A DNA stretch of 51,699 nucleotides, from positions 1 through 51,699 of the forward strand of contig JACPIJ010000060.1 in NCBI GenBank assembly GCA_016188145.1. Reading direction: 5' to 3'. The stretch is from Candidatus Woesearchaeota archaeon (GTDB lineage: Archaea; Nanobdellota; Nanobdellia; Woesearchaeales; UBA10216). Positions within the stretch are counted from its first letter, which is position 1. Each line of letters starts with the position of its first letter. Below are positions 6,468 through 36,904 of the stretch, piece after piece. Both the position numbers and the translations under genes were made by a program. The notes under the pieces are model-generated. The model did not search any database. It saw only the letters and a program-made list of their open reading frames with translations, and had not been told where the DNA came from.

Positions 6468-6532
6468 TTTTGAGTTCGTTTTTGCAGTTGCCATTTTGAC
6501 AATTTGCATTTTGCCGATCTTGCAGGATATGT

Positions 6533-9774: not shown

Positions 9775-9854
9775 TTTTTTGATTGACCTTTCCACATCGT
9801 CTTTTGACGATGGGACCCGTCGTGCTTGCACGACGTGGTTTAGAAAAAAGGTCA
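9775..9854 (-). repeat. hairpin + ATCAAAAAC element, long copy D (carries a two-hairpin insert)
   Basis: Outer stem TGACCTTT/AAAGGTCA encloses CCACATCGTC-TTTT-GACGATGGG and ACCCGTCGTGC-TT-GCACGACGTGGT. The TGA stop of the reductase gene is part of the outer stem. Confidence 0.85.
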
Positions 9855-11087
9855 GAACCACGCTTTTTTAGCGAAGAGCAGCAGCTTTGGCTCTCTCATC
9901 AAAAGCTTGAGCGCAAATCTTGACGGCTGGTCGCGGTCGTAGCTTTCAAGAATAGCTTTGTTCTTTTCCCTGGCGAAAGTTTCAACAAGCCTGTTGTAAT
10001 CCTCGTTGCTGAACCTTTCCATTGCCTTTCTCATGAGGAGTGAGAGGTACAGGTCCATCCCCATTCTCTTCTTCCACAGCTTTTCATAATCGGCATTTTT
10101 CGTTATCGCCTCCGCCACCGCCTCTGCCCCGATCAGGCTTTGGTTTATCCCTCCGAGCGTTGGCGCTTTCACCATTGTTGCCGCATCCCCAACAAGCAGC
10201 ACCCTGCCGTCCTTTGTTTTTGACTTTAGCCTTGGGTCATACAGTGGTATTGGGCCGGCCTGCCTACCTGCTATCTTCTTCTCGTAATCCTTGCCGGCCA
10301 CAGCTGTCAGGAACCGCTTGAAGTATTGGCTGGCTTCTTTTTTCGCGGCAATACCCACTCTTGCAATTTTCTCATTCTCGGGCACAACCCAGGCTATGCC
10401 TTCCTCGCTTGGGTAGAAGTCAATGATGTTATCGTTTTCAACCGGTATGGTTGCCTGCAGCCCGACGTAGAACTGCCTGTTTCCAAACAAGCCCGCAGAT
10501 TTTGCAACCGCGCTTATGGGCCCGTCAGCACCAACCAAATAATTGGCTTCGACGGTTTTTGTTTCGTTTTTTATTTTGTCTTTCACAGCAACCATTACTT
10601 TTCTCGTTTCCCAATTCGCTTTCGAGCGAATGGGCCCAATCGGGCTCTTCCCGATTTGTGTTTCTTTTTCACTGCCGCTGCCGCCATTATTGCCATCTTC
10701 AAACGTTTCAAACGTGTGGTTGGCAAAGAATTTTGCCCCTGCGTCTTTAGCCAATTCAGAAATGTGCCTGTCAAGCCCTGCCCTGTCTATAATAATGTCG
10801 TTCTTCAGCTTGACCTCAACAAATTCCTTATTTGGCGCAATTATCCTCGCCTTTGCAATCCTGTTGACAATTAATTCCTTCGGCAATTGCAGCCGTTGTG
10901 AAAGGACATCGCCGGTTATGACCCCTGTGCAGGCTACCGGTTCCCCTATCGTTCCATGCTCCTCAAACACCCGCACGTCCATCCCTGCTTTCGCAAGAAG
11001 GTAGGCTGAAAATCCGCCAGCTGGCCCTGCGCCAGCAATCGCTATTTTTTTGCTTTCCATATTTCCATCTCCGTTGCTGCCATGCAC
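9852..11087 (-). CDS. geranylgeranyl reductase family FAD-dependent oxidoreductase
   Basis: KIAIAGAGPAGGFSAYLLAKAGMDVRVFEE (GxGxxG), GEPVACTGVI and LLVGDAA motifs. A Gly/Ser-rich insertion of about 50 aa is present. Confidence 0.85.
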   Translation of the reverse strand: MHGSNGDGNMESKKIAIAGAGPAGGFSAYLLAKAGMDVRVFEEHGTIGEPVACTGVITGDVLSQRLQLPKELIVNRIAKARIIAPNKEFVEVKLKNDIIIDRAGLDRHISELAKDAGAKFFANHTFETFEDGNNGGSGSEKETQIGKSPIGPIRSKANWETRKVMVAVKDKIKNETKTVEANYLVGADGPISAVAKSAGLFGNRQFYVGLQATIPVENDNIIDFYPSEEGIAWVVPENEKIARVGIAAKKEASQYFKRFLTAVAGKDYEKKIAGRQAGPIPLYDPRLKSKTKDGRVLLVGDAATMVKAPTLGGINQSLIGAEAVAEAITKNADYEKLWKKRMGMDLYLSLLMRKAMERFSNEDYNRLVETFAREKNKAILESYDRDQPSRFALKLLMREPKLLLFAKKAWF

Positions 11088-11236: not shown

Positions 11237-11599
11237 ATGGCGTCGTTCAGGCTTTTCTTCATTTCAGCGGTTCTTCTTATTGCCATCATCTCGGTCTCGG
11301 CGAATGCTGCGGCAGCCGAAAAAGCAGTCAAAATCACCAAGGTTTCGGCAGTCCAGGACTCCGAAGCGCTCGTTATTGTAAGCCTTGACTCGCAAAGGAA
11401 AAACACCGGTTCAAAGGTAACGGTTTCTGTTCCTGAGCTTGGATTAAGGGCCAGCCGCAATGTTGACTTTGCCAAGACAAACAAAAAGACAGTCCACCTT
11501 GAGATTCCTTCGCCAGACATGTTCGACCCCTACGTCAGGATAGTTTTTAGCAGCGACGGCGGCAAGAGGGTCAAGCACAGGCCGTTAATCCTGCAATAA
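11237..11599 (+). CDS. small secreted protein, single CARDB-like beta-sandwich module
   Basis: Signal peptide MASFRLFFISAVLLIAIISVSANAAAAE. The segment VSVPELGLRASRNVDF parallels VSIPELGVTATPDFVDEL in the next gene. Confidence 0.55.
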   Translation: MASFRLFFISAVLLIAIISVSANAAAAEKAVKITKVSAVQDSEALVIVSLDSQRKNTGSKVTVSVPELGLRASRNVDFAKTNKKTVHLEIPSPDMFDPYVRIVFSSDGGKRVKHRPLILQ

Positions 11600-11629: not shown

Positions 11630-11765
11630 TAATAGATAACAAAAGTAACTACTCTTATATGCTAAAATAGCGAAATGTTTATATAGAAGCTTCGTTTATC
11701 GGAGAAAGCATAACGCATAATTTTGTGCTAATTCAGTAGGAAATGACAGTTGGGGTGGTTTGAAA

Positions 11766-13391
11766 ATGAATATGTCCAAGAGTGTGTTTGTTGTTCTTTT
11801 GATGTCGATTGTCAGCATGCTTGTTCTGGCTTCGTCAGCACTCGCTGCCGCTCCAAAGGTTTCTTTTTCCGGCGTTCCGTCAAATGTTGTTGCCGGAACC
11901 ACGTTTGATGTAACGGTTTCAGCCGCAAACGACACTACTGCAAATCAGTTCATGCAGGTGATTACAGTGGCAAGCGACCTTGGCTGGTCAGTTTCACCCC
12001 AGTCAGTCAACTGCGGCTCTGTGCTTTCATGTGTTGCCAAATTCACCGTAACAGTTCCTTCTGGCGCAACTGTCAACCAGAAGTCAAAGCTGACTGCGCA
12101 GGTAACTACGAGCACCAGCGAGTCCGGCTCTGCAATTTCAGGGGATACAGTAGTTTCAGGCGCTCCATCGCTCGGCAACGGGGTGCCTGTCAGTGTTGAT
12201 GCTGTTGAGGTTGATAACTTCGAGCTTTCCTCTTCAGACACAAATGTCCGCGACCTGGAAAGGGGCGAGGAGTTCACGCTTAAGGTCAAGCTTACAGCAC
12301 TGGCGAATGCCAAGGACGTTGAGATAAGGGCTTTCGTTACAGGATTTGAGTTTGCAAAGAGCGAGCCAATAAGCGACTCGACAAGCCCATTCGACGTTGA
12401 GAAGGGAGTCAGCTATGTTAAAACGTTAAAGCTCAGGCTGCCTGACAGGGTTCAGGAGGACACATACAGAATAAGGGTAGTGGTTGGCGGCAGAGACAAC
12501 GATGAGCTTGTCGAAAACTTCAGGATAAAGGTAACCCCGTCAGCCCACGAGGTTGTTATCAAGGACCTTAGCGTCAACCCTGAGGACGTTATCCAGGCCG
12601 GAAGGGCTGTCCTGGCGACTGTCAGGGTGAAGAACCTTGGCGATAAGACGGAAAGGGACGTCAAGATCAGGGTCAGCATTCCTGAACTCGGTGTTACGGC
12701 AACTCCGGACTTCGTGGATGAGCTGAAGTCAGAGGATTCCGCAACTTCAGAGGAGTTTTTCCTCAGGATTGACCCGTGCGCAAAGCCGGGAACTTACGAT
12801 GTCAAGGCCGAAGTCACCTTTGAAGAGGGCGACAAGACGGTAACTGCAAAAGAGCAACTGACTGTCACAAAAGGCCCATGCGAAGCTCCGGCAGGCCCTG
12901 CATCTGTCTCGGCAGGCGGCGTTAAGATAGCTTACAGCGCTGAGCCGCAGAATGTTGAGGCTGGCGGCGCGGCTGTTGCATACCCAATAACGATTGTGAA
13001 CGAGGGCTCGGAAACAAAGAGCTACAGCCTGTCTGTAGCCGGCTCTGACTGGGCAACTGTCAAGCTCAGCCCAGGCAACATGGTCACCGTGAAGGGCGGT
13101 GACAGCCAGACTGTTTACGTGTTTGTTTCAGCCAAGGCAGGAAGCTCCGGCGGGCAGACGTTCGTAGTCAGGATCAAGGACCAGGCAGGCGACGTTGTGA
13201 AAGAGCTTCCATTGTCTGCTAATGTTGTAGCAGCAGGCGCTGGTGGCGCAGGTGCTGCCAGCCTTGCCCAGCTGTTGCAGCTTGGCCTGATTGCCCTGAT
13301 AGTCGTGCTGGTCATAGTTGGACTGGTCATGGCCTTCAGGAGAATGAAGGGCCCGGGCGAGGGCGGGGAAGGAAGCCAGACTTACTACTAA
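11766..13391 (+). CDS. sequon-poor surface (S-layer-like) protein with CARDB-like repeats and a C-terminal TM anchor
   Basis: Signal peptide, repeated beta-sandwich-like modules, and C-terminal LGLIALIVVLVIVGLVMAFRRMK. GGGGTGG sits 7 nt upstream of the ATG at 11766 (the ORF track starts at TTG 11760). Only one mature N-X-S/T sequon by my scan. Confidence 0.7.
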   Translation: MNMSKSVFVVLLMSIVSMLVLASSALAAAPKVSFSGVPSNVVAGTTFDVTVSAANDTTANQFMQVITVASDLGWSVSPQSVNCGSVLSCVAKFTVTVPSGATVNQKSKLTAQVTTSTSESGSAISGDTVVSGAPSLGNGVPVSVDAVEVDNFELSSSDTNVRDLERGEEFTLKVKLTALANAKDVEIRAFVTGFEFAKSEPISDSTSPFDVEKGVSYVKTLKLRLPDRVQEDTYRIRVVVGGRDNDELVENFRIKVTPSAHEVVIKDLSVNPEDVIQAGRAVLATVRVKNLGDKTERDVKIRVSIPELGVTATPDFVDELKSEDSATSEEFFLRIDPCAKPGTYDVKAEVTFEEGDKTVTAKEQLTVTKGPCEAPAGPASVSAGGVKIAYSAEPQNVEAGGAAVAYPITIVNEGSETKSYSLSVAGSDWATVKLSPGNMVTVKGGDSQTVYVFVSAKAGSSGGQTFVVRIKDQAGDVVKELPLSANVVAAGAGGAGAASLAQLLQLGLIALIVVLVIVGLVMAFRRMKGPGEGGEGSQTYY

Positions 13392-17059: not shown

Positions 17060-17429
17060 CACTCACAAATCTGCTGTTGCCATTTCAGTTTTGACCGGAT
17101 TGATGCGTAACTTGGCCAAAATTATCATAACTCATCATACTCGTCTTAACTTTAAAGAGGTTACAACAATTTAAATATAGACCTTCTCAACTGTTCCAAC
17201 TGGATTTGAAGGGGGTGCGTGCGCGTTATTGGCAAACGTAGCGAACATAATGGCAACAGGAGAGAAATTAAGTCATATTTTAGCACGTATTCACGCCTTT
17301 TCCAAAAAGTTTAAATACAACCTAACCAAAAGTGAGTTCCATACTCCCAGTCATACTATTATCGGCCATCGGAATTGTGTGGCTGTGCAGTTTGAGTGGT
17401 GTCAGGAGTTAAAATCGAGGTGTTGAGGC

Positions 17430-20400
17430 TTGTCTTTTAACGCGAAGTCGCTTAAGCCGCTTTTTTCACAGAAAAAGGGAACCATTTACAGCCTTGTTCT
17501 GCTGATTGCCGTAGCGGTAATGGTTGTAGGCATATTGTCGGTTAATGCTTTAAACGCAAGAAATGTTACAATAACTCCCAAGTGGGTGGGTTCTAGTTTC
17601 AATCAGTCCTTTAACATTACTGTTAGCAATGTTGCTGGCAGTGCTGTAATCAATGTAGTCAGGATTACTAAACCAAACGATTTTGTCGACATATACTGTA
17701 TTAACCCCGTGACTACGGGGTGGACTTGCGCAACCAACGGCACGAAACAAGGGTTTGTGTATGTGGAATTCACAGGCGGCACCATAGCTGCTGGCGCTTC
17801 TGACAGCTTTAACATTACCTCAACCGCTGCCAGTGCTGCCGGTGATTACACGTTTCAGTTGAGGACAGAGGATGACGCTGCCGCTATTAACTCAACCAAT
17901 CTCAACAACAACGTTTCTGTCGACACACGTCCTCCACTGCTTGTTTTGATGAACGTTTCTGACGGCACCAGAATCCTTAGCAGCGGGGAGCACCTTAATG
18001 GCTCGCTTTTCCTGAGCAACTCCACTGGCAGGGTTACCATACTGTTTAACGCAACCGACAACGAGTCGTCAGTGCACTCTGTAACGCTTTACTACAACGC
18101 CACAAATAGCACGTCAATTTCTGAAGATGTTATCTTAAAGCCTAACCACCAAACAGCAGGCACTTATGATTTGGCATATGCAATGTCCAACTTATCATTC
18201 GGGCCTGGCTCTTTGTGGAACGCAACGCTTGATGGCGGCAACATCCTCAACGGCACAAGGATATTCTTCACAGTTGTTGCCAACGACACGGTAAGAAACG
18301 GCAACGTGAGCAACTCCACCTACTGGCCGAATTCTGGCACGGCTTACAATTTTACTATAGACTCGGCTGCCCCAAGGTTTGAGGACGTTCAGGTTTTAAA
18401 CGCCAGTCAGCTTACCACCAACACGGCAGGCAATGCCATTAACACCACTAAGACGTTTGGCAGCCTTGGCGGGCTTGAGTACATAATAAACAGCAGCCTG
18501 CTGCTTAACGTCAGCGCCCTCGTCAGCGATGGCGGAGGCTCAGGCGTTGTGCGTGTCCAGATTATGAACAGGACAGGCAACTTTGTGGACATGAACCCGA
18601 TTACCGGCACGAATGGCTCAAGTGGCCAGACAACGTGGAACCTCTCGCTCTACAACATAACCGACCTGGGGCAGCGCGTTGGCGGCTTCAATGGCGATGG
18701 GTTATACAACCTCAGCTTCAGGACAACCGATAATGTCAGCAACGTCGTCAATAATAACTTCACCGTTGAGGTTGACGACGCCCCGCCAACAGGCTCTGTT
18801 TCCACAAACATAACAATTAATGGCAAGCTTTCAGAAGGCAATGTAACACTGGACATCTCTACAAACGCATCCTTCAACATCAGCCTTAAGACAACCAATA
18901 ACATAAACAACATTACAAGGAACGTGAGCGTGTTTGGCAACAGAGGGCTGGTGTACAACTTCACTTTCGGCAGCGGAACGACTTCAGGCACTTCAGTCTG
19001 GAACCTGACCCTGTTAAACGACTCATTGGTTAACCTGAGCAACTTCTGCGACGCAAGCACGGGCTTTACGGCTGCTGACGGCTCGCAGTGTAACCTCCAA
19101 TTCAACTTCTCAGACGTCCTTGGAAGGATGAACAGCTCAATAAACCTGACAATAGCTGTTGACGGGGTTGCGCCAAACGTTTCGATAATCAGCCCTGTTT
19201 CCCTTACAACTAACTATACCGGTACAGTCCTGATTAACGCCTCAGTGAACGATTCTGTCGGGCCATTAAGGAACGTCTCGTTCAGGTGGAGGATGAACTC
19301 GTCAACAATTACTGACGGTGACGAAGGCCTTAATGCGAGCAACTGGATGCCCCTCAGTTTGACATCAGGCACCAACAGCCAGTTCAACGCTCGCGGCTAC
19401 TGGTCAGCCACGCTCACAATCAGCAGCTTGACTGACACGAATTACAGCATAGAAATCAACGCAACCGACAGCGGCGCAAGGCAGAACACTACGACAAATG
19501 TTTCGAATGTCATATTTGACTCTACAATTCCGCAGAACATCACCATAGTTGCGCCCGGCTCGAACAGCTTCCTCAGGGTTAACTTCACAGTTGGCATAAA
19601 CGCCACCGAGAGGATATCGGGGCTGCGCAACGTGAGCGTAAGGCTTGAAAACGCAACCCATACTTCTCCGTGGGTTGGGATGAATCAGGAGATTGTTGCC
19701 CTTTCATCTGTTACTACCATTGCCACAACTGCAAAATACAACGCATCCAGGTTTAACCTCACCCATGTTGGTGAGCAGGCCATGAACGCAAGCAATGGCA
19801 ACTTCACCTTGCGGCTTAACGTCACAGACACGGCAGGCAACCAGAACACCACTGTAACGATAAACTTCACAATAGACACGGTTCTGCCCACGAATATAAC
19901 GGTAATACAGCCGTTAACCGGCATAAACAGGACAGGCAACTTCACCATTAACCTCTCGGTTAATGAGTCAAACATTGATACTGTCTGGTTCAGGTGGGTT
20001 AATGACAGCAGCGGCGCTACAGCGGGCCATAGGGGGCCATGGGTGCCAATGACTCAAGGCACTGTCGGCATGTTCAACAGCACCTTTATCAACCTGACCG
20101 TTGCTCCGGTATTGCTTGATGGCAACTACAGCATAGAGTTTAACGTTACCGACAGGGCGGGCAACCAGAACGCCTCCACGCTGCTCAACAGCACTCCCTT
20201 TGCCCAGCTTGTCCTTGACAGTAATGCCCCGCTGATTATTGCTACCGGCTCCCTTGCTGGCAACACCTCAAACCTGACCGGCAACTTTTTTGTTAACCTC
20301 ACGATAAACGACACCAGCACATGGAACATGACCGTTGGCAAGCTTACTACCAGAAACATTAACGCCTCAGCGTTCAGGCTTGAGAACACAACGTTTAACA

Positions 20401-21647
20401 GCAGCTGGCTCAACATGGATTTCGCAACCAATGACATGACAAACGCAGACTCCAACAGGACCAACGCTACCTTCACGTTCAGCTCTGTGCCAAACGGGCT
20501 TTACAACATAAGGTTCATGGTTAACGACACAGCAGGAAACCAGAACAACACAGTCCAGGTCAGCAACGTTATGCTTGACAACGTTGCGCCAAGCGTTGCA
20601 ATGTCTGTAAGCAACCTAAGCCCGAGCCCGACTGGAGGAAGCGGTATTTCCGGCAGTTTGTCATTCAATGTTACCATAACAGACAACCTGCCGGTTAACA
20701 TCAGCATCGGAAACACGAACAGCACGCAGGGCAACAGGTTCGGCGTGTTCTACCGCTTTGTGAGCGCTTCACTCACAACATCGTGGCTGCCGATGAACAC
20801 TACATCGTTCTCAGAGTCAATAACAGCGCCGCACAAGGTCGTGTTTAACGCCACCAACGGCACCTCAGCGCTGGCTGACGGCGATTACCAGCTGCAGATT
20901 AACGCAACAGACTCGGCAAACAACCAGAACGCTACAGTGTATGTTGACGTTACATTGCAGAATGGCGGCAGCCGTGTGCAGGCCAAGAACCTGACCTTCT
21001 TTGAGGGCATTTGGAATGGCTTTGCCAACAGCAGCACAGACACCTACACGTTCCTGATGAACACCACTGCAAACGCGACTTGCAGATACTCGCTCGACAC
21101 GTCAGCAACCGACTATGACGCTATGACCAGCACTATGACTAACAACGTCAGCAGGGAGCACAGAATCGCCTTCGGTCCACGCAGGGATGTTGGAGCTTCA
21201 GGCCATACATTATACTATGCCTGCAAGGATGTTTCTGGCAACTTCACAGCTGCTGGAGGAGCAGCGAGCCAGTTCCCCTTCGGCATTGACACCAGGAGCC
21301 GTTGGAATGTTACAATCCCGGGAAAGACCGACAGCAAGTGGCCAAACTACTTCCAGGCAGCAGCTGGCGGCAGCGCTAATGGCTGGTCAAGCTTTGTGCT
21401 TTCAACAGGACAGTTGGCAGACACTACTTTAGTCAGTCCGGGAACATATAACGTGACTTCTGTGCTGTCCTCGCTGCTGAGCGGAACCGCAGCAGGCAAC
21501 TTCACCAGAATATATGCTTACACTGCCAGCAGTGACTCGTGGGTGAGTTTCAGGGTAGGGCAGACAGGCAATACATTTATCAACTTTACCAACCAGACAA
21601 CATACTGGCTTAACGTTACAACCGTTGAAAGGCTGGAGATAAACTAA
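17430..21647 (+). CDS. giant secreted/anchored glycoprotein, about 10 Ig-like (DxAGN-type, Big_5/SbsA-like) repeats, sequon-saturated
   Basis: 1405 aa. Repeated modules end in DTAGNQNTT / DRAGNQNAS / DTAGNQNNT / DSANNQNAT followed by V-x-D-x-x-x-P. I hand-counted about 110 N-X-S/T sequons. The N-terminus SQKKG-TIYSLVLLIAVAVMVVGILSV resembles an archaeal class III signal. TTG start, with GAGGTG 10 nt upstream. Confidence 0.8.
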   Translation: MSFNAKSLKPLFSQKKGTIYSLVLLIAVAVMVVGILSVNALNARNVTITPKWVGSSFNQSFNITVSNVAGSAVINVVRITKPNDFVDIYCINPVTTGWTCATNGTKQGFVYVEFTGGTIAAGASDSFNITSTAASAAGDYTFQLRTEDDAAAINSTNLNNNVSVDTRPPLLVLMNVSDGTRILSSGEHLNGSLFLSNSTGRVTILFNATDNESSVHSVTLYYNATNSTSISEDVILKPNHQTAGTYDLAYAMSNLSFGPGSLWNATLDGGNILNGTRIFFTVVANDTVRNGNVSNSTYWPNSGTAYNFTIDSAAPRFEDVQVLNASQLTTNTAGNAINTTKTFGSLGGLEYIINSSLLLNVSALVSDGGGSGVVRVQIMNRTGNFVDMNPITGTNGSSGQTTWNLSLYNITDLGQRVGGFNGDGLYNLSFRTTDNVSNVVNNNFTVEVDDAPPTGSVSTNITINGKLSEGNVTLDISTNASFNISLKTTNNINNITRNVSVFGNRGLVYNFTFGSGTTSGTSVWNLTLLNDSLVNLSNFCDASTGFTAADGSQCNLQFNFSDVLGRMNSSINLTIAVDGVAPNVSIISPVSLTTNYTGTVLINASVNDSVGPLRNVSFRWRMNSSTITDGDEGLNASNWMPLSLTSGTNSQFNARGYWSATLTISSLTDTNYSIEINATDSGARQNTTTNVSNVIFDSTIPQNITIVAPGSNSFLRVNFTVGINATERISGLRNVSVRLENATHTSPWVGMNQEIVALSSVTTIATTAKYNASRFNLTHVGEQAMNASNGNFTLRLNVTDTAGNQNTTVTINFTIDTVLPTNITVIQPLTGINRTGNFTINLSVNESNIDTVWFRWVNDSSGATAGHRGPWVPMTQGTVGMFNSTFINLTVAPVLLDGNYSIEFNVTDRAGNQNASTLLNSTPFAQLVLDSNAPLIIATGSLAGNTSNLTGNFFVNLTINDTSTWNMTVGKLTTRNINASAFRLENTTFNSSWLNMDFATNDMTNADSNRTNATFTFSSVPNGLYNIRFMVNDTAGNQNNTVQVSNVMLDNVAPSVAMSVSNLSPSPTGGSGISGSLSFNVTITDNLPVNISIGNTNSTQGNRFGVFYRFVSASLTTSWLPMNTTSFSESITAPHKVVFNATNGTSALADGDYQLQINATDSANNQNATVYVDVTLQNGGSRVQAKNLTFFEGIWNGFANSSTDTYTFLMNTTANATCRYSLDTSATDYDAMTSTMTNNVSREHRIAFGPRRDVGASGHTLYYACKDVSGNFTAAGGAASQFPFGIDTRSRWNVTIPGKTDSKWPNYFQAAAGGSANGWSSFVLSTGQLADTTLVSPGTYNVTSVLSSLLSGTAAGNFTRIYAYTASSDSWVSFRVGQTGNTFINFTNQTTYWLNVTTVERLEIN

Positions 21648-21693: not shown

Positions 21694-23364
21694 ATGGTTA
21701 AAGCTAAAAATTCCGCATTAATAATTCTTATTTTAAGCATTTTAAGCTTGTCATTGTTTCTGTCATTAAGCGCGTATGCTGAGCAGTATGAAAAGCTTAA
21801 CACATTCACAGGCAACGTCACAATAGGAGGGAGCTACGCGTATAACGGCGCAGTTATTGACGCCTTCATAGGCAGCTCGTCCTCTCCTGCAAAGTCGTAC
21901 ACGATTGGCTCCTCAAACCTGGGGGAGAACTACTCAGTTGACTTTGAATGCAACGCCGGCAGCACAGTTTTCCTGAAAGTGTGGGGCATCAACGCCACCC
22001 ATCAAACCTGCACCAATTACTTGGCTAACTACACAAACCTTTCTGTTTCCCTGACGGCCAACGACGGCTCGTGCAGCTACGCCAACGGCTGCTCAAGCGG
22101 CATCTGCTGCTCTGGCGATACTGCAGTTAACAGCTCTACCTCAAGCGGCGTATGTCAGGCAGCGGCGTGCGGCGCCGGCATAACCATACCGGCATTTTCC
22201 CTCAGCGCTTCGAGCATAACAACGTCTGGAACAGTGAATTTCACCATAAACCTAAGCAGCGTGCTGCGCTACAACATCACGTCAGCGAACTTCACCCTGG
22301 TTACCGGGTCAACTGTGGTTAGCAGGAACTTTACCATACCTTCCAGCGGGAAGGATTTCAACTTAAGCTACAAAATCTTTGCCTCGTCAGAAACAGCGTC
22401 TGCTGGCACGTACAACGTGACCGCTGTGCAGGTTAATGACAACGGAAGCATAGTAAACCGCACTGCCATAACAAACATGAACTTCACCGTTACGGCTGCG
22501 GCAACCACTCCTGCCGCTGATACGGGCGGAAGCAGCGGCGGTGGAAGCGGTGGCGGAGGGGGAACCCCGGCTGTAACACCAGCTCCAGCACCCAGTAAAG
22601 AAACTGTAGAGGCGGTTAAAGAGGCCTTGCCTGCGACTTTCCAGGTGGCTGCGGAAGCCGGCAACGTTGAGTACAAGACAGTTGCAGCTCCTGAGGTCAA
22701 GGCGGTTCCCGCAAAGGCAGAAGCAGCTACCTCAGATATCAAGTACGCTGTGGATTATTTAGTCAAGACAGAGGAGGCACAGCAGGCGTTGAGCAGCATA
22801 CAGGACGCCGTTTCAGCTGGCTCTGCAACCACGGTCCAGGCTTCTGGCGGCTCTGTCAAGAAAACAATTGAGGTTGTCAAGGCTACCAACAAGGTCACTA
22901 AGGAAGAGGTAGTTGTTTCTGTCGTCAAGCTCTCGGTCACCGCCCCAGGTAACCAGGACCTGAAGAACGTTGAGGTTGTCGAGGTTATTCCGAAGGCAGC
23001 TGCCAGCAATGTCAACCAGGTCACTTTTAAGGGCGAAAAGCCCATAGTGCTTGAGGCAGACCCTGTTGTCAAGTGGTTCTTTGCCCAGGTCAGCAAGGGC
23101 CAGAAGAAGGATCTCAGTTACGCCATTAACAAGGACATAAGGAGCATCGGCACGAGCACAGTCGCTGTCCAGGGACGGGCAGAAGCAGCCCCTCCGGCCG
23201 TTGAGGCGCCCCCTGCTCCTCCTGTTGGGGAGAAAGAAGAGGCAGCGCCTGCTGAGGTCAAGAAGCCCACTCCTTTTAGCATAATGATTTTGGTGGTTGT
23301 TCTGGCTGTTGTCGTGGTTGGCGGCTGGCTGTTCCTGAAGGGCAGGAAGAAGGTTATGAAGTAA
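21694..23364 (+). CDS. secreted Cys-rich glycoprotein with a Gly linker, IPK-type domain, TM anchor and basic tail
   Basis: Signal peptide ...LSLSAYAEQ, a Cys-rich N-domain, many NxS/T sequons, GGSSGGGSGGGGGTP, and C-terminal FSIMILVVVLAVVVVGGWLFLKGRKK. Confidence 0.75.
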   Translation: MVKAKNSALIILILSILSLSLFLSLSAYAEQYEKLNTFTGNVTIGGSYAYNGAVIDAFIGSSSSPAKSYTIGSSNLGENYSVDFECNAGSTVFLKVWGINATHQTCTNYLANYTNLSVSLTANDGSCSYANGCSSGICCSGDTAVNSSTSSGVCQAAACGAGITIPAFSLSASSITTSGTVNFTINLSSVLRYNITSANFTLVTGSTVVSRNFTIPSSGKDFNLSYKIFASSETASAGTYNVTAVQVNDNGSIVNRTAITNMNFTVTAAATTPAADTGGSSGGGSGGGGGTPAVTPAPAPSKETVEAVKEALPATFQVAAEAGNVEYKTVAAPEVKAVPAKAEAATSDIKYAVDYLVKTEEAQQALSSIQDAVSAGSATTVQASGGSVKKTIEVVKATNKVTKEEVVVSVVKLSVTAPGNQDLKNVEVVEVIPKAAASNVNQVTFKGEKPIVLEADPVVKWFFAQVSKGQKKDLSYAINKDIRSIGTSTVAVQGRAEAAPPAVEAPPAPPVGEKEEAAPAEVKKPTPFSIMILVVVLAVVVVGGWLFLKGRKKVMK

Positions 23365-23468: not shown

Positions 23469-26400
23469 GTGCTGGCAAAATTGGACAGTAGAGCGGTGTC
23501 GAGGCTTGTTTTTCTGGTTGCTGTAGCTGCTGCAGCTGCTGTGCTGTTTGGAAAGCTTTTCGTAGCTGCCTCAGCATCTTCTGAGGAGCCTGTAAAGGTA
23601 ATTGTTTACGTCAAGGACGGCTCTTGGGAGAAGAAGCTCGTCAGGGGGATTTACCCCGCAGCTGCCGCTGTCAGTTCGCAGTCTGTGCTGGAATCCTTGC
23701 CTGCTGGCGAGGTCGAGGCTGGCCACCGCTTTAGCTCCTTTGACGGCTTTGTAGCTACTGTGAGCAGGGCTGCTTATGAGCAGCTTAAGGCAAATCCGAA
23801 CCTTGAGGTGTATGAAGATGGGTTTTCCAGCATCATGCTTGACGGCTCTGCCCCCCTTGTAAACTCAACCATTACGCATGGCCTGGTTTACAACAGCAGC
23901 AACATAACGGGGAATACCATAAGCGTTTGCGTTATTGACACTGGCGTCAACTACAGCCATCCTGCCCTGGGAGGATGCACCACTTCGCAGTTTACAGGCG
24001 GCACCTGTGCAAAGGTTCTTTCAGGCTATGACTTTTTCAACTCTGACAATGACCCGATGGACAACCACGGCCACGGCAGCCACGTTGCAGGGATAGTGGC
24101 GAGCACTGACAGCACTTACCGCGGCATAGCCCCTAACGCTTCCATTATAGCCTTAAATGCCTGCAGCAATGCAGGCTCCTGCCCTAACAGTAACATTACA
24201 GCTGCCATCGACTGGTGCGTCAACAACGCCTCTAAGTTCAACATTTCCGTCATAAGCATAAGCTTGGGGGGAGGGCTTTACAATTCTTACTGCGACAACG
24301 ATGATTCAGCAGGCGTTTTCAAGCTGCCAATAGACACCGCTGTTGTGAATAACATCTCTGTTGTTGCAGCTTCTGGCAACCAGGGCGTTTCTGTTACTCA
24401 GGGCAGCACAACTCAGATACGCGCTCCTGCCTGCATCCAGAACGCTACAGCTGTTTCTTCAACAACCAAGCAGGATGCGGTTGCAGCTACTGCTGACCGA
24501 AACAACATTACAGACCTGCTTGCCCCTGGCGACAGCATTACATCTGTTAATTACAACACTGGCGGCTTTACGTCAAAGAGCGGCACTTCCATGGCTGCCC
24601 CGCATGTTTCTGGCGCGATTGCCCTTCTGGCGCAGTTCAGGAAGCTCACGGCAGGTGTTAACATAACGGTAAACGAAAGCTTCCTCGCCCTCAACACAAC
24701 AGGCGTCAACGTTACAGACACAGACGGAAACGGTATCCAGTATGCGAGGATTAACGTCTACAAGGCTTCGCTGTGGCTTGACTCCGACCCTCCCAACATC
24801 ACTTACGTTGCCCCGACACTTGCTAACAATTCAAATTCCTCGTCGACAAACGTCTTCGTCAACATCACCAGCAGCGAAATCCTCCATACTGCATTGCTTG
24901 AGTGGAACAACAACACCAACATCACCAACTACAGCATGGTCCAGAATGGCTCGGCTCTTGCCTGGGCTAGGAACCATACCTCGAGCAGCTCCGGCGTTAT
25001 AACTTACAGAGTGTGGGGCAACGACTCTGCTGGCAACTGGGGTGTTGCCGAAAATAGGACTGTGCAGGTCAACAACACGCCTCCGAGGATTGATTTGTTC
25101 CTGCCTGCCAACATCAACCACAACATCACAGAGCCAGCCAATCAGACATTCAACATAACCTACACCGACACCGAAAACGATGCCGTGATTGTGGACTGGT
25201 ACGTTAACGGCACCCTCCAGGCATCAGCGAGGAACACCAACTTCACTTTCCTTGGCAACTTCAGCCAGGCATCGCAGCAGCGCAACGGCACTTACAACAT
25301 CACCGCTGTTGTCTCGGATGGTAGCCTTTCCAACCAGCTAAACTGGACTTTGACAGTGAATAACACAAACAGGGCTCCGCAATGGGCCAATGCCTCCAAC
25401 CAGACATCAGCCGAGGACGCCCCGCTGAATTTCACAGTCATTGCCACAGACCTTGACAACGACACGATAACCTACTTCCTGAACAACACGATAAACTTTA
25501 CTATAAACGCGACAACAGGCAACATAACCTTCAACCTCTCTGGCGCCGGCAACTTTTCGGGAACGTTTTACCTTGCCATCAACGCTTCTGACGGCCTCGC
25601 AAATGCGTCTGAAGTGATTTTCGTGAACATAACGGCAGTTAATGACACCCCAACGCTATTTACAATCAGCAACTTTACCTTGAACGAAACCGACTTTGCC
25701 AACATAACCGCAGTTGCCGATGACGCTGAGAACGACCTTCTCAACTTTACAATAAACGACACTGCAAGATTTAATTTCACGACGAGAAACCAGTCAGCTG
25801 CCAACTTCAGCTGGAAGACAAACATTACTGATGCGGGAACTTACCAGTTCAGGGTCAACGCCACTGACTTCAATACATCAAGCATTGGCTTCTTCAACGT
25901 TACGGTGGTTGACAGGCCTGATTTTGACGGGGATGCCATTCCTGACATTTATGATGATGATATTGACAATGACGGCGTTCAAAACGGGCAGGACTCGATC
26001 CTTGGTAACTTCAGCAGCCTGAATTCCTCAACTCTGCTGTCTTCAGCCCTTAATGTTACGATTAATGGCACAGCAAACGCATCAAGGCTTCTCAGCGATA
26101 CGCTTTTTGTGAACGTATCAAACAGCACCCGTTCATTGCTCGCGTTTTACTGGAATTTCAGCCTCAGCAACCTTTCGCTTAATTTTACGGTTGACGTGCA
26201 GGCCCCGGCAGCGTCTGTTGGCTTTATACTGATTAAAGGGCTTGTGCTGCAGCAGAACCAGACGAAAAACATCACTATAAACGTTGTGAGCGGCAGCAAC
26301 AGCGTCTGCGTCAAGGATGCTGATGTTTCCTCGATTAATGACGTGAGCAGCGGCTGCAGCGGCGCTAATGAGACTCTCATCTCATGCCCTGGAGTTGCAG

Positions 26401-27305
26401 GCAAGTTCGACTGCTCAATAGTCAACAGCCAATTTTACGAAATCACGAATGTCAGCTTTACAGCAGCAAAGGAGCAGCCTGCATCACCAAGTCCGCAGGC
26501 GCAGAATGACGGTGGTGGTGGTGGCGGTGGAGGCGGTGGTGGGGGTGGTGGAGGGGGTACGGCAGCAAGCACAGGCGGCTCTTTGGCAAGGGTGTCACAG
26601 GTGTTTACAGCAGTCAAGGAAGGTGAAACTGCGATTATGAGGATTAACAGGTCAAGCATAGCTTTCACGAAGGTAAGATTTACGGCAGCGTCATCCCTGT
26701 CAAACATCAACATTAATGTTGAGCTTCTTAATGAGTCGAGCGTTTCAACTAGGCTTTCCACCCCTGAAACATCATTCTCTGTTTACCAGTACCTGAGCAT
26801 TACATCAAAGCTTACCTTCCTTGACATAACCGGTGCTGCAGTTGAGTTCAGGGTTCCAAGGCAGTGGCTGTCGGACAGGGGCTTCAATGCAAGGCAGGTT
26901 TCGCTGTTCAGGCACTCAGCCGGCTCATGGGACAGGATGAGGGCTGTGCTTTTCAGCGAGGACAGCAGCTATTACTACTATTCAGCCGATTTGCCGGCGT
27001 TTTCGCTTTTCGCAATCGCTGCTGAGAAGCTTGGAGAAGAGGAAAAGCCTGTTGCCGGAGAACCTCTCCTGGTACCGCCAAATGCGACAGAAGCAAAACC
27101 GGCTGATCAAACCGCAGTTTCGCTGCAAAAAGAGTCTCTTTTCAAATCGGTATTTTCTGAAAGGAAGTTCAAGCTTGTGGCAGCAGCTGCCGCTGTTGCC
27201 CTCGTTCTGCTGGCAGCCATTTTCCTTAAAATGTTCAGAAAAATGAGGGAGCAGGAAAGAGTAAGCGACTTTGTGTCCACAGTTTCTAGAATAAGGCGTA
27301 AATGA
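23469..27305 (+). CDS. membrane-anchored subtilisin-like (S8) serine protease fused to a long glycosylated stalk
   Basis: Catalytic motifs VCVIDTGVNYSHPAL (Asp), HGHGSHVAGIVAS (His), AASGNQG (Asn) and SGTSMAAPHVSGAIALL (Ser). An I9-like propeptide comes first. After the protease come sequon-rich Ig/cadherin-like repeats, a DFDGDAIPDIYDDDIDNDGVQNGQD calcium-type motif, a 16-Gly tract, a PGF-pre-PGF-like domain (...VYQYLSI...FRVPRQWL...AFSLFAIAA) and a TM anchor. A leaderless-type GTG start lies about 25 nt downstream of CTTTATAAAT. Confidence 0.85.
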   Translation: MLAKLDSRAVSRLVFLVAVAAAAAVLFGKLFVAASASSEEPVKVIVYVKDGSWEKKLVRGIYPAAAAVSSQSVLESLPAGEVEAGHRFSSFDGFVATVSRAAYEQLKANPNLEVYEDGFSSIMLDGSAPLVNSTITHGLVYNSSNITGNTISVCVIDTGVNYSHPALGGCTTSQFTGGTCAKVLSGYDFFNSDNDPMDNHGHGSHVAGIVASTDSTYRGIAPNASIIALNACSNAGSCPNSNITAAIDWCVNNASKFNISVISISLGGGLYNSYCDNDDSAGVFKLPIDTAVVNNISVVAASGNQGVSVTQGSTTQIRAPACIQNATAVSSTTKQDAVAATADRNNITDLLAPGDSITSVNYNTGGFTSKSGTSMAAPHVSGAIALLAQFRKLTAGVNITVNESFLALNTTGVNVTDTDGNGIQYARINVYKASLWLDSDPPNITYVAPTLANNSNSSSTNVFVNITSSEILHTALLEWNNNTNITNYSMVQNGSALAWARNHTSSSSGVITYRVWGNDSAGNWGVAENRTVQVNNTPPRIDLFLPANINHNITEPANQTFNITYTDTENDAVIVDWYVNGTLQASARNTNFTFLGNFSQASQQRNGTYNITAVVSDGSLSNQLNWTLTVNNTNRAPQWANASNQTSAEDAPLNFTVIATDLDNDTITYFLNNTINFTINATTGNITFNLSGAGNFSGTFYLAINASDGLANASEVIFVNITAVNDTPTLFTISNFTLNETDFANITAVADDAENDLLNFTINDTARFNFTTRNQSAANFSWKTNITDAGTYQFRVNATDFNTSSIGFFNVTVVDRPDFDGDAIPDIYDDDIDNDGVQNGQDSILGNFSSLNSSTLLSSALNVTINGTANASRLLSDTLFVNVSNSTRSLLAFYWNFSLSNLSLNFTVDVQAPAASVGFILIKGLVLQQNQTKNITINVVSGSNSVCVKDADVSSINDVSSGCSGANETLISCPGVAGKFDCSIVNSQFYEITNVSFTAAKEQPASPSPQAQNDGGGGGGGGGGGGGGGGTAASTGGSLARVSQVFTAVKEGETAIMRINRSSIAFTKVRFTAASSLSNININVELLNESSVSTRLSTPETSFSVYQYLSITSKLTFLDITGAAVEFRVPRQWLSDRGFNARQVSLFRHSAGSWDRMRAVLFSEDSSYYYYSADLPAFSLFAIAAEKLGEEEKPVAGEPLLVPPNATEAKPADQTAVSLQKESLFKSVFSERKFKLVAAAAAVALVLLAAIFLKMFRKMREQERVSDFVSTVSRIRRK
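26511..26558 (+). repeat. GGN microsatellite encoding 16 consecutive glycines
   Basis: ggt ggt ggt ggt ggc ggt gga ggc ggt ggt ggg ggt ggt gga ggg ggt, read directly from the sequence. Confidence 0.95.
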
Positions 27306-27579
27306 ACGGCGATAATGGGGATGCTTGCCCGAATATTATGAGCATGCCCACAAGCACAAGCGTTACTATTATTGGCAGGAGCCACCACTTCTTCCTGACC
27401 TTCATGAAGCTCCAGGCCTCCCTCACAAGGTAGAAGTGTCTCTGCAGGAAACCTTCCCTTCCCTCATTTTTGCCAAGTACCTCTGCAATTCTTGCTTCTT
27501 CACCTGTTTGAGCTTGAGCTTCCCGATTTTCATTCCGGGCTTGTTTGCCTTTGTCCATTTCAGTTTTTCCGTTCTTCAT
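27286..27579 (-). CDS. DUF5989-family small membrane protein with a charged N-terminal extension
   Basis: The C-terminus VREAWSFMKVRKKWWLLPIIVTLVLVGMLIIFGQASPLSPFIYALF matches the DUF5989 signature (RKKWWL...PFIY-LF). It sits 12 nt downstream of the SGNH gene. Confidence 0.7.
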   Translation of the reverse strand: MKNGKTEMDKGKQARNENREAQAQTGEEARIAEVLGKNEGREGFLQRHFYLVREAWSFMKVRKKWWLLPIIVTLVLVGMLIIFGQASPLSPFIYALF

Positions 27580-27591
27580 ATTACTGCGTTT

Positions 27592-28797
27592 TTATATTTT
27601 GGCTTTTATCCTCAAATCCTCAACTGCAGCGGTTTGTGTGCTGTAGTTTGCCAGGCCCTTGTAAAGCTCTTCTGCAAATAGCTTGTCGCCTTCCTTTGTG
27701 AAGTGCACGAAGGACTGGTACAGGGTTTTGCCTTCAGCCTCGCGCTTCAGAAATTCGTCTGTAGGGTCTATCAGCATTATTCCATTCCTGGCGCTTATGT
27801 CTGTAATCCTTTCCCGGATGGCTTGCATGTTTGTTCTGTTAGTGCTGAGGTTGGCTGCCTGCAGGAAGTCCTCGTACTCCTTTTCGCCCACTTCCCACCT
27901 TGCAGGGATATAGGCCAGGGCAAGCTTTGCTCCTCTCTGCTCGGTTTCTGCTTTCATGGTTCTTATCAGCAGCTCAGTTTTGTTCCAGGCGTCTTCTACG
28001 GCCTGCTTCTCATCCGGCGCCAGGTCCGTGACATAGGGATGCTTTTTGAAATCTGTTGCGGTTGCTGCCCCTGTTGCAACGCTAAAGCCAAGCCTTGCCA
28101 TTATTGGATTGAGGAGCTTGAACTGTGTTGCGTGCAGCTGGAAGTAGCTGCAAAATGCAGAGTAGAAGCTGCATTTTATGATTAGCTTCTTCGCCCCGTT
28201 CCCAAGCATTGTTCCTCCAACATCTGTTGGCAGTATGCTTTCGTTCTCAACCCTGAAGAGCCTGCTTACCGCCACGTTTCCCAGGTCGTTCTGGTAGTAA
28301 GTGAGCACAACGACGTCAGGATTATAGCTAAGAGCTTGTGTTATCAGGTACTTGTACTCGTTGTCTGTGCCCCACGAGCTTGTGCCGTAGCTTATTACCT
28401 CGTGCCTTGCTGATGATTGCTGGCTTGCATAGCTGTTTAGCCTGTTCTGCAGAAGCGCCGTGAAGTGATTTTCTTTTTCTGTGTAGAGCCCTTCAACAAA
28501 GGAGTCCCCAACAATGAAGATTCTTTTTGTGCCTGGCGGTTTTTCTTTTTTCGGGTTCTGGTTAACGAAACCTTCCTGGTTTGTCCAGAACTCGTGCTGC
28601 CCTTCCGGGCTTTTGTACACCCCGACGAAGTTTGGCTTTGGTTTATAGTTGAGCTCGTCGTCTGAGACGTATATTGATTTGTACGGCCAGTAGAACCTGA
28701 AGAACACCTCGATGACTATTGCGCACGCAAGCAGCGTTATTGCAAGCAGCAGCATCTTTTTTACCAGCTGATTCGTTTTCATCGGTTGCTCCATCAT
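27592..28797 (-). CDS. SGNH/GDSL-like hydrolase with an N-terminal TM anchor
   Basis: Block I RIFIVGDSFVEG, block III-like YYQNDLGN, and block V-like SFVHFTKEGDKLFAEEL. The N-terminal hydrophobic helix is LLLAITLLACAIVIEVFF. Confidence 0.6.
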   Translation of the reverse strand: MMEQPMKTNQLVKKMLLLAITLLACAIVIEVFFRFYWPYKSIYVSDDELNYKPKPNFVGVYKSPEGQHEFWTNQEGFVNQNPKKEKPPGTKRIFIVGDSFVEGLYTEKENHFTALLQNRLNSYASQQSSARHEVISYGTSSWGTDNEYKYLITQALSYNPDVVVLTYYQNDLGNVAVSRLFRVENESILPTDVGGTMLGNGAKKLIIKCSFYSAFCSYFQLHATQFKLLNPIMARLGFSVATGAATATDFKKHPYVTDLAPDEKQAVEDAWNKTELLIRTMKAETEQRGAKLALAYIPARWEVGEKEYEDFLQAANLSTNRTNMQAIRERITDISARNGIMLIDPTDEFLKREAEGKTLYQSFVHFTKEGDKLFAEELYKGLANYSTQTAAVEDLRIKAKI

Positions 28798-35263: not shown

Positions 35264-35520
35264 TTTCTCTTGTAAAGGCTGATTTGCCAGTTTGATGACG
35301 GATAGGCTGTTATAATCATTGCGATTCCACTTCTATTTTCATATACTACGCTGATGAACCTTTTCAGGAAGCCAATTGCAAGGTATCTGCCTCTTCTGGC
35401 TTTGAGGTGTTTCGGCTCGTCTGCAAGCAAGGTTTCCTCTATTTCTTCCCTCAGCACGCTGTGCTTTGTCAATATCTTTTCTTCTATCTCTTGCCCTAAG
35501 TACACGTCCACGATACGCAT
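35260..35520 (-). CDS. BrnT/DUF497-like toxin
   Basis: From the internal ATG at 35520: MRIVDVYLGQEIEEKILTKHSVLREEIEETLLADEPKHLKARRGRYLAIGFLKRFISVVYENRSGIAMIITAYPSSNWQISLYKRK. The KH-x-V..EE.EE ... R-Y-x-x-G ... VVY ... IITA pattern resembles BrnT. An ACTTTAAAGAG box lies about 27 nt upstream. The ORF track's longer version (to 35664) has an implausible N-terminus. Confidence 0.5.
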   Translation of the reverse strand: MRIVDVYLGQEIEEKILTKHSVLREEIEETLLADEPKHLKARRGRYLAIGFLKRFISVVYENRSGIAMIITAYPSSNWQISLYKRK

Positions 35521-36895: not shown

Positions 36896-36904
36896 TCCTT
36901 AAAT

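Follow-up and report, generated by a model that had tools for sequence, protein, structure and literature searches.

How densely can an archaeal surface protein be supplied with sites for N-linked glycosylation, and what kind of protein would carry them? This question is raised by a 51,699-nucleotide (nt) stretch of DNA from a Candidatus Woesearchaeota archaeon (GenBank assembly GCA_016188145.1, contig JACPIJ010000060.1; the whole stretch is referred to here as the window), in which an earlier note had pointed to a giant surface protein saturated with N-x-S/T sequons and encoded beside an AglB oligosaccharyltransferase. The gene for this protein, designated the target, is the following.

17430-21647, plus strand: target gene, TTG start; predicted 1,405-amino-acid (aa) sequon-saturated envelope protein with immunoglobulin-like (Ig-like) repeats; Big_13, 71.5 bits (cut-off, 27); 16 full-length orthologues

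The target is probably a conserved, glycosylated cell-envelope protein of this groundwater DPANN archaeon. What the sequence itself shows is a sequon excess that is direction-specific and conserved, together with the domain architecture, an AglB gene, and synteny.

Sequon excess in the target protein

When every N-x-S/T with x other than proline was counted, with overlaps allowed, the target had 113 sequons in 1,405 aa (8.0 per 100 aa, or one per 12.4 aa), close to the ∼110 that had been counted by hand. Threonine was favored over serine at position +2 (69 NxT versus 44 NxS), N-P-S/T motifs were absent, and 64% of the asparagines fell within sequons. The earlier note had proposed comparing an exact count with a composition-shuffled null, and composition failed as an explanation: 1,000 shuffles of the target gave 40.7 ± 5.3 sequons (z score, 13.6; 2.8-fold enrichment).

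The excess was restricted to one motif in one direction. The reversed motif, S/T-x-N, occurred 41 times (40.6 expected), N-x-N 12 times (20.9 expected), and S/T-x-S/T 66 times (76.9 expected), while D-x-S/T and Q-x-S/T were at expectation and N-S/T and N-x-x-S/T were depleted. Because the reversed motif and the other polar pairs at i/i+2 were at or below chance, the excess is specific to the glycosylation motif, and this direction-specificity argues that it arises neither from a composition rich in Asn, Ser, and Thr nor from the alternating polar pattern of beta-strands. The ∼24 cytoplasmic proteins encoded in the window had a total of ∼28 sequons versus ∼29 expected (hand sum of a table of the individual open reading frames [ORFs]). 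These results confirm that the sequon excess in the target is genuine and goes beyond composition.

A high count could also be an artefact of composition or of recently duplicated repeats. Asn, Ser, and Thr do make up 36% of the residues of the target, and when the nine Ig-like domains described below were compared with each other, about 8 alignment columns had a sequon in at least four domains. However, the domains have a mean mutual identity of only 25%, and 33 of the 46 sequon columns were occupied in one or two domains only, so the count was not inherited from one duplicated unit. The shuffles and the conservation of the sites across orthologues point the same way. Composition or duplication and, likewise, beta-strand periodicity were ruled out as sources of the count by the shuffles, the directional controls, and the domain comparison, and we consider that there is next to no chance of an artefact of this kind.

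Conservation of sequons among orthologues

A database search recovered 16 full-length orthologues of the target (46 to 62% identity), and all of the named ones belong to Candidatus Woesearchaeota (kingdom Nanobdellati, DPANN). Each of the 17 proteins, including the target, had 107 to 126 sequons (z scores, 12 to 16). Fifty-four of the 113 target sequons were present in 17 of 17 proteins, and 74 were present in at least 16. In the 17-sequence alignment, column identity was 0.84 for sequon asparagines, 0.54 for other asparagines, and 0.52 for all other residues. The Ser or Thr at +2 was retained in 0.89 of cases, while the x position (0.55) was near background. Because the asparagine and the +2 residue are conserved and the residue between them is not, the motif itself, and not merely the local sequence, is under purifying selection. 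This conservation is the strongest indirect sign that the sites in the target may be used, and together with the shuffles and the direction-specificity it upholds the claim that the density exceeds what an Asn-rich composition would provide.

Of the alignment columns, 229 had a sequon in one or more orthologues, and in 54 every orthologue had one. A test for compensatory turnover was uninformative at such density: lost majority sequons had another sequon within ±6 columns in 64% of cases, versus a background of 68%. The length of the full-length gene models (1,387 to 1,429 aa) and the number of domains were rigidly conserved. Some starts of the deposited models appear to need revision. The model of orthologue P0004 (positions 9989 to 10003 of the related locus L001) begins at an internal ATG, and the conserved start, a TTG preceded by a Shine-Dalgarno-like sequence, lies 4 codons (12 nt) upstream. 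Four further models begin downstream of the K-K-G motif of the export signal, within or after the signal helix.

A wider HMMER search of 1.84 billion cluster representatives gave 227 matches at E ≤ 1e-3. Among the 145 newly retrieved matches, beyond the 20 of the first search, 35 had at least 7 sequons per 100 aa and 75 had a ratio of observed to expected sequons of at least 2. Examples of sequon-rich homologues had 197 sequons in 2,560 aa, 153 in 1,755 aa, and 72 in 693 aa; the named ones, including P0020, are from Woesearchaeota, Aenigmarchaeota, and Altiarchaeales. Two named homologues with low ratios (1.0 and 1.7) are bacterial. The many sequon-rich DPANN homologues suggest that saturation is lineage-wide for DPANN surface proteins with Ig-like repeats and not peculiar to the target. 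In sequencing runs, the sequence was found in groundwater DNA metagenome runs only.

Architecture of the target protein

The predicted protein consists of an export signal, nine Ig-like domains, and a distinct C-terminal region.

17430-17561, plus strand: N-terminal export signal, aa 1-44; charged n-region, Q-K-K/T/R-G-A/T motif, and hydrophobic helix of ∼21 residues
17562-20954, plus strand: nine diverged Ig-like domains (Big_13/Big_3 type), aa 45-1175; 114 to 146 aa and 7 to 14 sequons each
20955-21644, plus strand: C-terminal region, aa 1176-1405; tenth Ig-like sandwich (predicted local distance difference test [pLDDT], 80 to 95) and a subdomain of ∼115 aa

By a hydropathy heuristic, aa 15-43 are the sole hydrophobic segment, with no other transmembrane segment and no C-terminal anchor. 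The target is predicted to be exported and thus extracytoplasmic. For the N-terminus, a Sec signal peptide, a signal anchor, and a class III (pilin-like) signal are all candidates. Thirteen of the 17 gene models have the Q-K-K/T/R-G-A/T motif and the 21-residue hydrophobic stretch; the remaining four are those that begin downstream of the motif. With respect to a class III signal, position -2 is Thr in two orthologue models (QKTGA), and small residues after the helix could serve signal peptidase I. No genes for pilins or prepilin peptidase were found near the target in the loci scanned, and a scan of the window and of loci L001 and L002 revealed no convincing further protein with a K-G motif and a hydrophobic N-terminus. 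The chain ends in ...VTTVERLEIN with no hydrophobic segment, unlike a PGF-CTERM substrate of archaeosortase A.

Eight boundaries of the form h-D-x-x-x-P (h, hydrophobic; aa 164, 310, 448, 577, 696, 815, 929, and 1049) delimit the nine domains. In addition to Big_13, the Pfam models Big_3_2 (35.1 bits; cut-off, 23.3) and Big_3_3 (31.6 bits; cut-off, 27) matched the target. It had been claimed that about ten Ig-like repeats end in D-x-A-G-N-Q-N-(T/A/N)-(T/S). The repeats themselves stood, as nine canonical domains plus a tenth Ig-like sandwich, while the strict motif occurred only three times (aa 800, 908, and 1033) and a looser form seven times. The motif corresponds to the usual D-x-A-G-N strand motif of the family plus a sequon.

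A profile search of PDB sequences matched only the BIg domains of the Salmonella adhesin SiiE (2yn3; E = 3.9e-9). An AlphaFold2 model of aa 206-1405 was all-beta and of low confidence (pLDDT, 60). Foldseek aligned it with multi-Ig proteins at a probability of 1.0 and with TM-scores of ≤0.2; the matches were strings of Ig, FN3, and MG domains, namely, a thick-filament entry (8q6t), mastigoneme, complement, Haloferax volcanii csg (rank 34), and SiiE. At this pLDDT the model cannot tell an S-layer protein from an adhesin. The sequons lie mostly in an h-N-h-S/T-h context, in which positions x, -1, and +3 are chiefly V, A, L, I, or F, and in the same model the predicted strands hold 59% of sequon asparagines versus 21% of other asparagines.

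In a separate model of aa 1156-1405 (overall pLDDT, 74), the tenth Ig-like sandwich (∼aa 1185-1290) was modeled at a pLDDT of 80 to 95 and contains the conserved Cys1218 and Cys1265. No Pfam or NCBIfam family matched the C-terminal 230 aa even at E ≤ 1, and Foldseek found no match with E < 1e-3 for the C-terminal model, leaving the ∼115-aa subdomain without a fold match. Four conserved patches are free of sequons (aa 63-127 in domain 1, 536-558, 1216-1270, and 1294-1334), and these are likely surfaces for protein contact.

Glycosylation genes and conserved gene order

The genes for a potential glycosylation pathway are upstream of the target, with a carbamoyltransferase downstream.

439-1587, minus strand: family 4 glycosyltransferase (GT4)
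4450-5214, minus strand: xylose-isomerase-like TIM-barrel protein
5326-5760, minus strand: DUF2304 small membrane protein, adjoining the next gene
5805-6551, minus strand: family 2 glycosyltransferase (GT2) like polyprenyl-phosphate sugar synthases; best matches PpgS and AglJ, both well below curated cut-offs
6533-9697, minus strand: AglB/STT3 oligosaccharyltransferase, 1,054 aa; Pfam STT3, 126 bits (cut-off, 24.5); DIDPYY and WWDFG motifs
9852-11087, minus strand: geranylgeranyl-reductase family protein next to aglB; TIGR02032, 165 bits (cut-off, 158.8)
28847-30574, minus strand: carbamoyltransferase (NodU/CmcH type), conserved in the island

The DIDPYY and WWDFG motifs of AglB align with EFDPYF and WWDYG of STT3A. 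AglB also has an unusual, highly charged (K/E-rich) N-terminal extension of ∼140 aa ahead of its first transmembrane helix. The gene is 7.7 kb upstream of the target, and its 3′ end is overlapped by the GT2 gene by 19 nt. The geranylgeranyl-reductase-family gene adjoins aglB in L001 and L003 as well, and its product may saturate the polyprenol or dolichol carrier. A role of the carbamoyltransferase in glycan modification is possible. On the minus strand downstream of the target, this gene is accompanied by genes for a DUF5989-like small ORF and a GDSL protein.

An envelope island of ∼35 kb is syntenic in five related contigs (L001 to L005), including the one with the most distant orthologue (46% identity). 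The retained order is AglB, reductase, NEW3/CARDB-like proteins, polytopic membrane protein, amino-acid permease, DUF192 protein, and target, followed by an anchor-type protein of 430 to 670 aa, a subtilase-like protein, the carbamoyltransferase, and a protein of ∼1,270 aa. These orthologous loci are not independent samples, and the linkage of AglB to the target could be mere conserved gene order. Nevertheless, the signal or anchor helix, the Big_13 domains, the WWDFG motif, the GT2 and GT4 genes, and the synteny in five genomes agree with the earlier note that a surface protein is encoded beside AglB and glycan-building genes. The conserved island thus provides candidate genes for a glycosylation pathway in Woesearchaeota.

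Sequon-rich and sequon-poor exported proteins

The target is followed by three further sequon-rich membrane proteins.

21694-23364, plus strand: 556-aa type I membrane protein, which follows the target in all five related loci
23469-27305, plus strand: sequon-saturated, membrane-anchored S8 subtilase with an Ig-like region; PGF-pre-PGF domain at aa 1048-1184; C-terminal transmembrane helix
31020-34826, plus strand: sequon-saturated 1,268-aa type I membrane protein; PGF-pre-PGF domain at aa 1007-1130

The earlier note had described these genes as similarly rich in Asn, Ser, and Thr. With respect to sequons, the subtilase had 80 versus 24 expected (z score, 12.9), the 1,268-aa protein had 72 versus 21 (z score, 12.5), and the 556-aa protein had a weaker excess (16 versus 6.4; z score, 4.2), with all 16 within the first 263 aa. 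As in the target, the excess was specific to the glycosylation motif, more weakly so in the 556-aa protein. In both saturated proteins, the PGF-pre-PGF domain (TIGR04213) precedes the transmembrane helix, which is followed by a long, charged cytoplasmic tail with no obvious PGF-CTERM end. The subtilase has a poly-Gly linker, with a run of 16 Gly, ahead of this domain.

The 556-aa protein comprises a signal peptide, a Cys-rich N-domain, one sequon-rich repeat of ∼95 aa, and a G/S linker in its N-terminal half, and a highly conserved, sequon-free module of ∼230 aa, a P/A linker, and a transmembrane helix in its C-terminal half. The membrane-proximal module is far more conserved than the target. 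Among the orthologues of this anchor-type protein, the number of ∼95-aa repeats is 0, 1, or 3 (window; L001, 14337-15656; L002, 14313-16322). Neither half of the 556-aa protein matched any Pfam or NCBIfam family even at E ≤ 1, and the PGF-pre-PGF domain common to the products of 23469 and 31020 was not detected in it with NCBIfam. A membrane-proximal module shared with these two proteins was also considered; BLASTP of the C-terminal halves gave similarity in the transmembrane helix only.

The same region encodes two sequon-poor exported proteins and a polytopic membrane protein.

11237-11599, plus strand: small secreted protein, 120 aa, 0 sequons
11760-13391, plus strand: sequon-poor exported protein with NEW3/FixG_C Ig-like domains; signal peptide and C-terminal transmembrane helix
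13556-14803, plus strand: polytopic membrane protein, 5 sequons versus 1.1 expected (orthologues, 2 to 7 versus 0.7 to 1.8)

The protein encoded at 11760-13391 has 2 sequons, one of which (NMS, residues 4 to 6) is in the signal peptide, so that one remains in the mature protein (2.9 expected), in agreement with what had been reported for this CARDB-like protein. Its resemblance to the NCBIfam model NF033506, "putative S-layer protein" (93 bits; E = 1.3e-26; below the cut-off of 110), weakens the case for simply taking the target to be the S-layer protein. Low counts were also obtained for a lipobox-like BNR protein (41845-44193; 1 sequon versus 4.8 expected) and an M23-like protein (44234-44944; 0 versus 1.1). 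The signals of these two proteins, a BNR/sortilin-type beta-propeller and an M23-like peptidase, are lipobox-like in bacterial style (LSSGC and VSGC), and the GC content at 42 to 44 kb is 43%.

Thus, four of the signal-peptide proteins in the window are sequon rich and four are sequon poor. In the five related loci, the NEW3/CARDB/FixG_C-type and adjacent secreted proteins (L001, 2990-6462; L004, 2039-5781; L005, 2014-3330 and 6134-8690) had 0 to 2 sequons each versus 2 to 5 expected, and two had 0 versus 5.2 and 5.3. Summed over the window and the five loci, the sequon-poor class had ∼8 sequons versus ∼36 expected, while the target, the subtilase-like protein, and the 1,270-aa protein were 2.6- to 3.7-fold enriched in every genome. 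The counts indicate apparent avoidance of the motif in one class of exported proteins and saturation in the other, and the proposal of two classes of envelope proteins in the earlier note has held at the level of sequence. In the polytopic membrane protein, 4 of the 5 sequons are in one soluble stretch (∼aa 176-207); its orthologues include L001 6597-7760 and L002 5771-6997, and these three proteins have 5 to 7 sequons each versus ∼1 expected.

It is tempting to extend these observations to DPANN archaea in general. Tentatively, and with less than an even chance, the exported proteome of Woesearchaeota and other DPANN archaea may be sorted into two classes kept apart by evolution, sequon-saturated (∼8 per 100 aa) and actively sequon-purged proteins, with the purged proteins forming a lattice or interfaces between proteins and the saturated ones a glycocalyx through which a minimal symbiont cell is protected and recognition of its partner is mediated. 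The saturated class might then comprise Ig-rod proteins, an exported protease, and loops of membrane proteins, and the purged class might comprise NEW3/CARDB-type, putative S-layer-like proteins. If the sites were occupied, glycan would account for half or more of the mass, in arrays denser than in any characterized archaeal S-layer or viral shield. Saturation and avoidance of sequons would also provide a simple genomic signature with which to predict which envelope proteins are glycan coated and which make protein contacts.

The same data bear on whether the N-x-S/T motifs might be structural, as outward-facing polar strand residues or Asx-type motifs, and mostly unglycosylated. Such a role would fit the strand-like h-N-h-S/T-h context and the low proportion of charged residues (10.7%), which leaves Asn, Ser, and Thr to supply surface polarity. 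However, if strand periodicity were the cause, S/T-x-N, N-x-N, and S/T-x-S/T would be raised to the same extent, and all three are at or below chance. Furthermore, only exported proteins have the excess, the motif is avoided in others of this group, little or no excess is seen in the two named bacterial homologues, and an AglB gene is present. Thus, a structural role in place of glycosylation seems very improbable.

Proposed organization and comparison with known surface proteins

We infer the glycan occupancy, topology, tethering, and function of the target as follows. The chain would be exported via its N-terminal signal or anchor helix, and AglB would transfer lipid-linked glycans to most of the ∼110 N-x-S/T sites at the outer face of the membrane while the chain is unfolded. 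The protein would then fold into a rod of ten Ig-like beta-sandwiches and a small C-terminal subdomain. As Ig domains usually span ∼4 nm, the length of the rod is estimated at ∼40 nm. With the sequons mainly in strands or at strand edges, glycan would be present on every face of the rod, and the sequon-poor first domain and C-terminal region would be the likely protein-contact ends. With ∼100 sites bearing glycans of ∼1 to 2 kDa, the carbohydrate might about equal or exceed the ∼148-kDa polypeptide.

Lacking a C-terminal anchor, the target could be held on the cell through the helix at its N-terminus or through the membrane-anchored product of 21694-23364, which by analogy is a candidate tether. 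The target, the sequon-saturated subtilase, and the PGF-pre-PGF protein might together form a dense glycan coat (a glycocalyx or outer canopy) that presents glycans outward and shields the envelope, against the protease that the cell itself exports, for instance. The occurrence of the subtilase in the same island points to protection against proteases, the cell's own and foreign ones alike, as one role of the coat.

In the literature searched, neither the sequon density nor the surface proteins of Woesearchaeota were the subject of any paper found. Elsewhere in the archaea, SlaA of Sulfolobus acidocaldarius has 31 predicted sites, one per 30 to 40 residues, a density that was called remarkable (PMC5744192, PMC12153357), and Nitrososphaera viennensis has one site per 240 residues (PMC12153357). 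Ig-fold surface proteins of archaea, including DPANN, are typically N-glycosylated (PMC5744192; bioRxiv 10.1101/2023.10.27.564410). Putative Ig-like surface proteins in Nanobdella aerobiophila, a DPANN archaeon that has been cultivated, have 15 to 52 predicted sites per ∼900 to 1,300 aa (bioRxiv 10.1101/2023.10.27.564410). Like the target, the Nanobdella proteins (MJ1_0160 and thermopsin-like and pectin-lyase-like proteins) are exported DPANN proteins with Ig-like folds and many predicted N-glycosylation sites; some have a C-terminal transmembrane helix and some do not, and the set includes sequon-rich exported proteases (bioRxiv 10.1101/2023.10.27.564410). They differ in density, which ranges from 15 sites per 1,000 aa up to 36 to 52 per 908 to 1,320 aa (at most ∼4 to 6 per 100 aa, versus 8 in the target), and in that Nanobdella is a thermoacidophile while the target organism is from groundwater; no orthology between them and the target was found, and no search aimed at it was made. 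As far as its sequence allows, the target is the same kind of object as the known archaeal Ig-fold glycoproteins, at two to three times the density.

The target and its neighbors thus have one conserved sequon per 12 to 17 residues in a mesophilic, uncultivated DPANN archaeon, versus the one per 30 to 40 previously considered remarkable in Sulfolobales. The gp120 subunit of human immunodeficiency virus type 1 Env provides an analogy, without homology, in its glycan shield, a dense array of N-glycans in which the number of sequons is conserved with partial turnover of positions. At roughly 5 sequons per 100 aa, gp120 has fewer than the target. Should the sites of the target be occupied, glycan would prevail over protein at the cell surface, which bears on the resistance of these tiny symbionts to proteases and viruses and on host recognition.

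Several observations weigh against a glycosylated envelope protein or against details of its proposed organization. None of the RNA runs searched for the target gene contained it. A sequon need not be occupied: in the S-layer protein of Nitrosopumilus piranensis, which has eight, no glycan could be detected (PMC12153357). Where sequons are only 3 residues apart, it would not be easy to occupy every one of them, and the placement of sequons in strands is approximate, being taken from the low-confidence model. The N-terminal signal could be of any of the three types named above, and tethering by the 21694-23364 product is suggested by adjacency and by the SlaA/SlaB analogy.

That analogy raises the possibility that the target is the lattice-forming outer subunit of an S-layer, like SlaA, and the 21694-23364 product its membrane stalk, like SlaB, which would refine the reading as a glycosylated envelope protein and not exclude it. 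Like SlaA, the target is a large (∼1,400 aa), beta-rich, multidomain protein without a membrane anchor whose gene is followed by that for a smaller protein with a transmembrane helix; in all six genomes this protein, of 430 to 670 aa, comes directly after the target and has a signal peptide, a C-terminal transmembrane helix, and a conserved sequon-free membrane-proximal module. SlaA is N-glycosylated by AglB, which is encoded near the target. Every related locus examined has a single conserved copy of the target in the same syntenic place, the boxes upstream of it that resemble a B recognition element (BRE) and TATA box are strongly conserved, and for Nanobdella a similarly built protein has been put forward as a putative DPANN S-layer protein (bioRxiv 10.1101/2023.10.27.564410). 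However, the target has no sequence similarity to SlaA or SlaB and ∼3 times the sequon density, and no coiled-coil stalk or SlaB homology was detected in the 21694-23364 product. No homology of the target to a characterized S-layer protein was found, H. volcanii csg being only a generic fold match (TM-scores, 0.13 to 0.18) among generic multi-Ig strings. Furthermore, with ∼12 glycans on each ∼120-aa domain, little of the surface would be free for lattice contacts, the sequon-poor 11760-13391 protein is an alternative candidate for the lattice, and none of the RNA runs searched contained the target. A role as lattice subunit seems rather unlikely.

Alternatively, the target might be a protruding fibrillar adhesin or host-contact protein of an episymbiont that forms no lattice, a glycan-coated Ig rod with an N-terminal anchor whose sequon-poor distal end binds the partner. 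Among solved structures, its closest relatives in both sequence and fold are found in the giant adhesin SiiE, whose BIg domains belong to the same family (Big_13) and share the D-x-A-G-N strand motif that closes each domain. SiiE differs in being Ca2+ stabilized and type 1 secreted, while the target has ∼12 sequons per domain and comes from an archaeon with AglB. The beads-on-a-string arrangement with a distinct C-terminal domain bearing conserved sequon-free patches would suit an adhesin, as would the conserved K-G-A/T motif and long hydrophobic helix, which resemble an archaeal class III signal retained as an anchor. DPANN archaea are mostly ectosymbionts, and their surface proteins are thought to mediate attachment (bioRxiv 10.1101/2023.10.27.564410). 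However, the C-terminal domain has no recognizable lectin or adhesin fold, the class III motif is imperfect, with Thr at -2 in some orthologues, pilin and prepilin peptidase genes were not found nearby, and length and domain number are rigid, unlike those of many repeat-variable adhesins. We regard an adhesin as a serious possibility that falls short of an even chance.

Possible upstream control region of the target

Three conserved elements precede or include the start of the target gene.

17149-17177, plus strand: conserved upstream block 1, with TATA-like TTTAAATA at 17170-17177; conserved in the window, L001, and L002
17299-17321, plus strand: conserved upstream block 2, TTTCCAAAAAGTTTAAATACAAC, a BRE/TATA-like promoter box ∼110 nt before the start codon
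17417-17432, plus strand: Shine-Dalgarno-like GAGGTG and TTG start codon, conserved

TTTAAATA and most of block 1 were invariant in the window, L001, and L002, with few substitutions, mostly in L002. Both BRE/TATA-like blocks and the Shine-Dalgarno-TTG element were invariant or nearly so in these three genomes, while the proteins are only ∼55% identical. The upstream blocks may represent two promoters in tandem, or else a regulatory element or leader that has been conserved, and block 1 could drive a short upstream transcript. A further block, GAAGGGGGTGCGT (17208-17222), which is between the two blocks bearing TTTAAATA, was also invariant or nearly so in the three genomes.

Other features of the window

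Scans of the window for tRNA genes and with Rfam found no RNA genes. The 118-aa ORF at 27325-27681 (plus strand) is probably spurious. It opposes a 97-aa ORF at 27286-27579 (minus strand) that has a DUF5989-like hydrophobic tail at its end and corresponds to the DUF5989 gene located beside carbamoyltransferase or GDSL genes in L002, L003, and L005. The relatives have a small gene pair, an NTP_transf_2 nucleotidyltransferase and a partner, between the anchor gene and the subtilase gene (L001, 15668-16602; L002, 16344-17284; L005, 15107-16081), which is possibly of the toxin-antitoxin type. A pair of similar size is located at 34838-35664 in the window, after 31020-34826; it has no NTP_transf_2 match and is likened to the pair in the relatives by size only. 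The stretch at 35939-38000, which has a GC content of 35% versus ∼48% elsewhere, contains a Fic/DOC-family gene (35939-36895) and an unassigned 206-aa ORF and may have been acquired recently. At 49874-50245 there is a MazF/PemK toxin gene.

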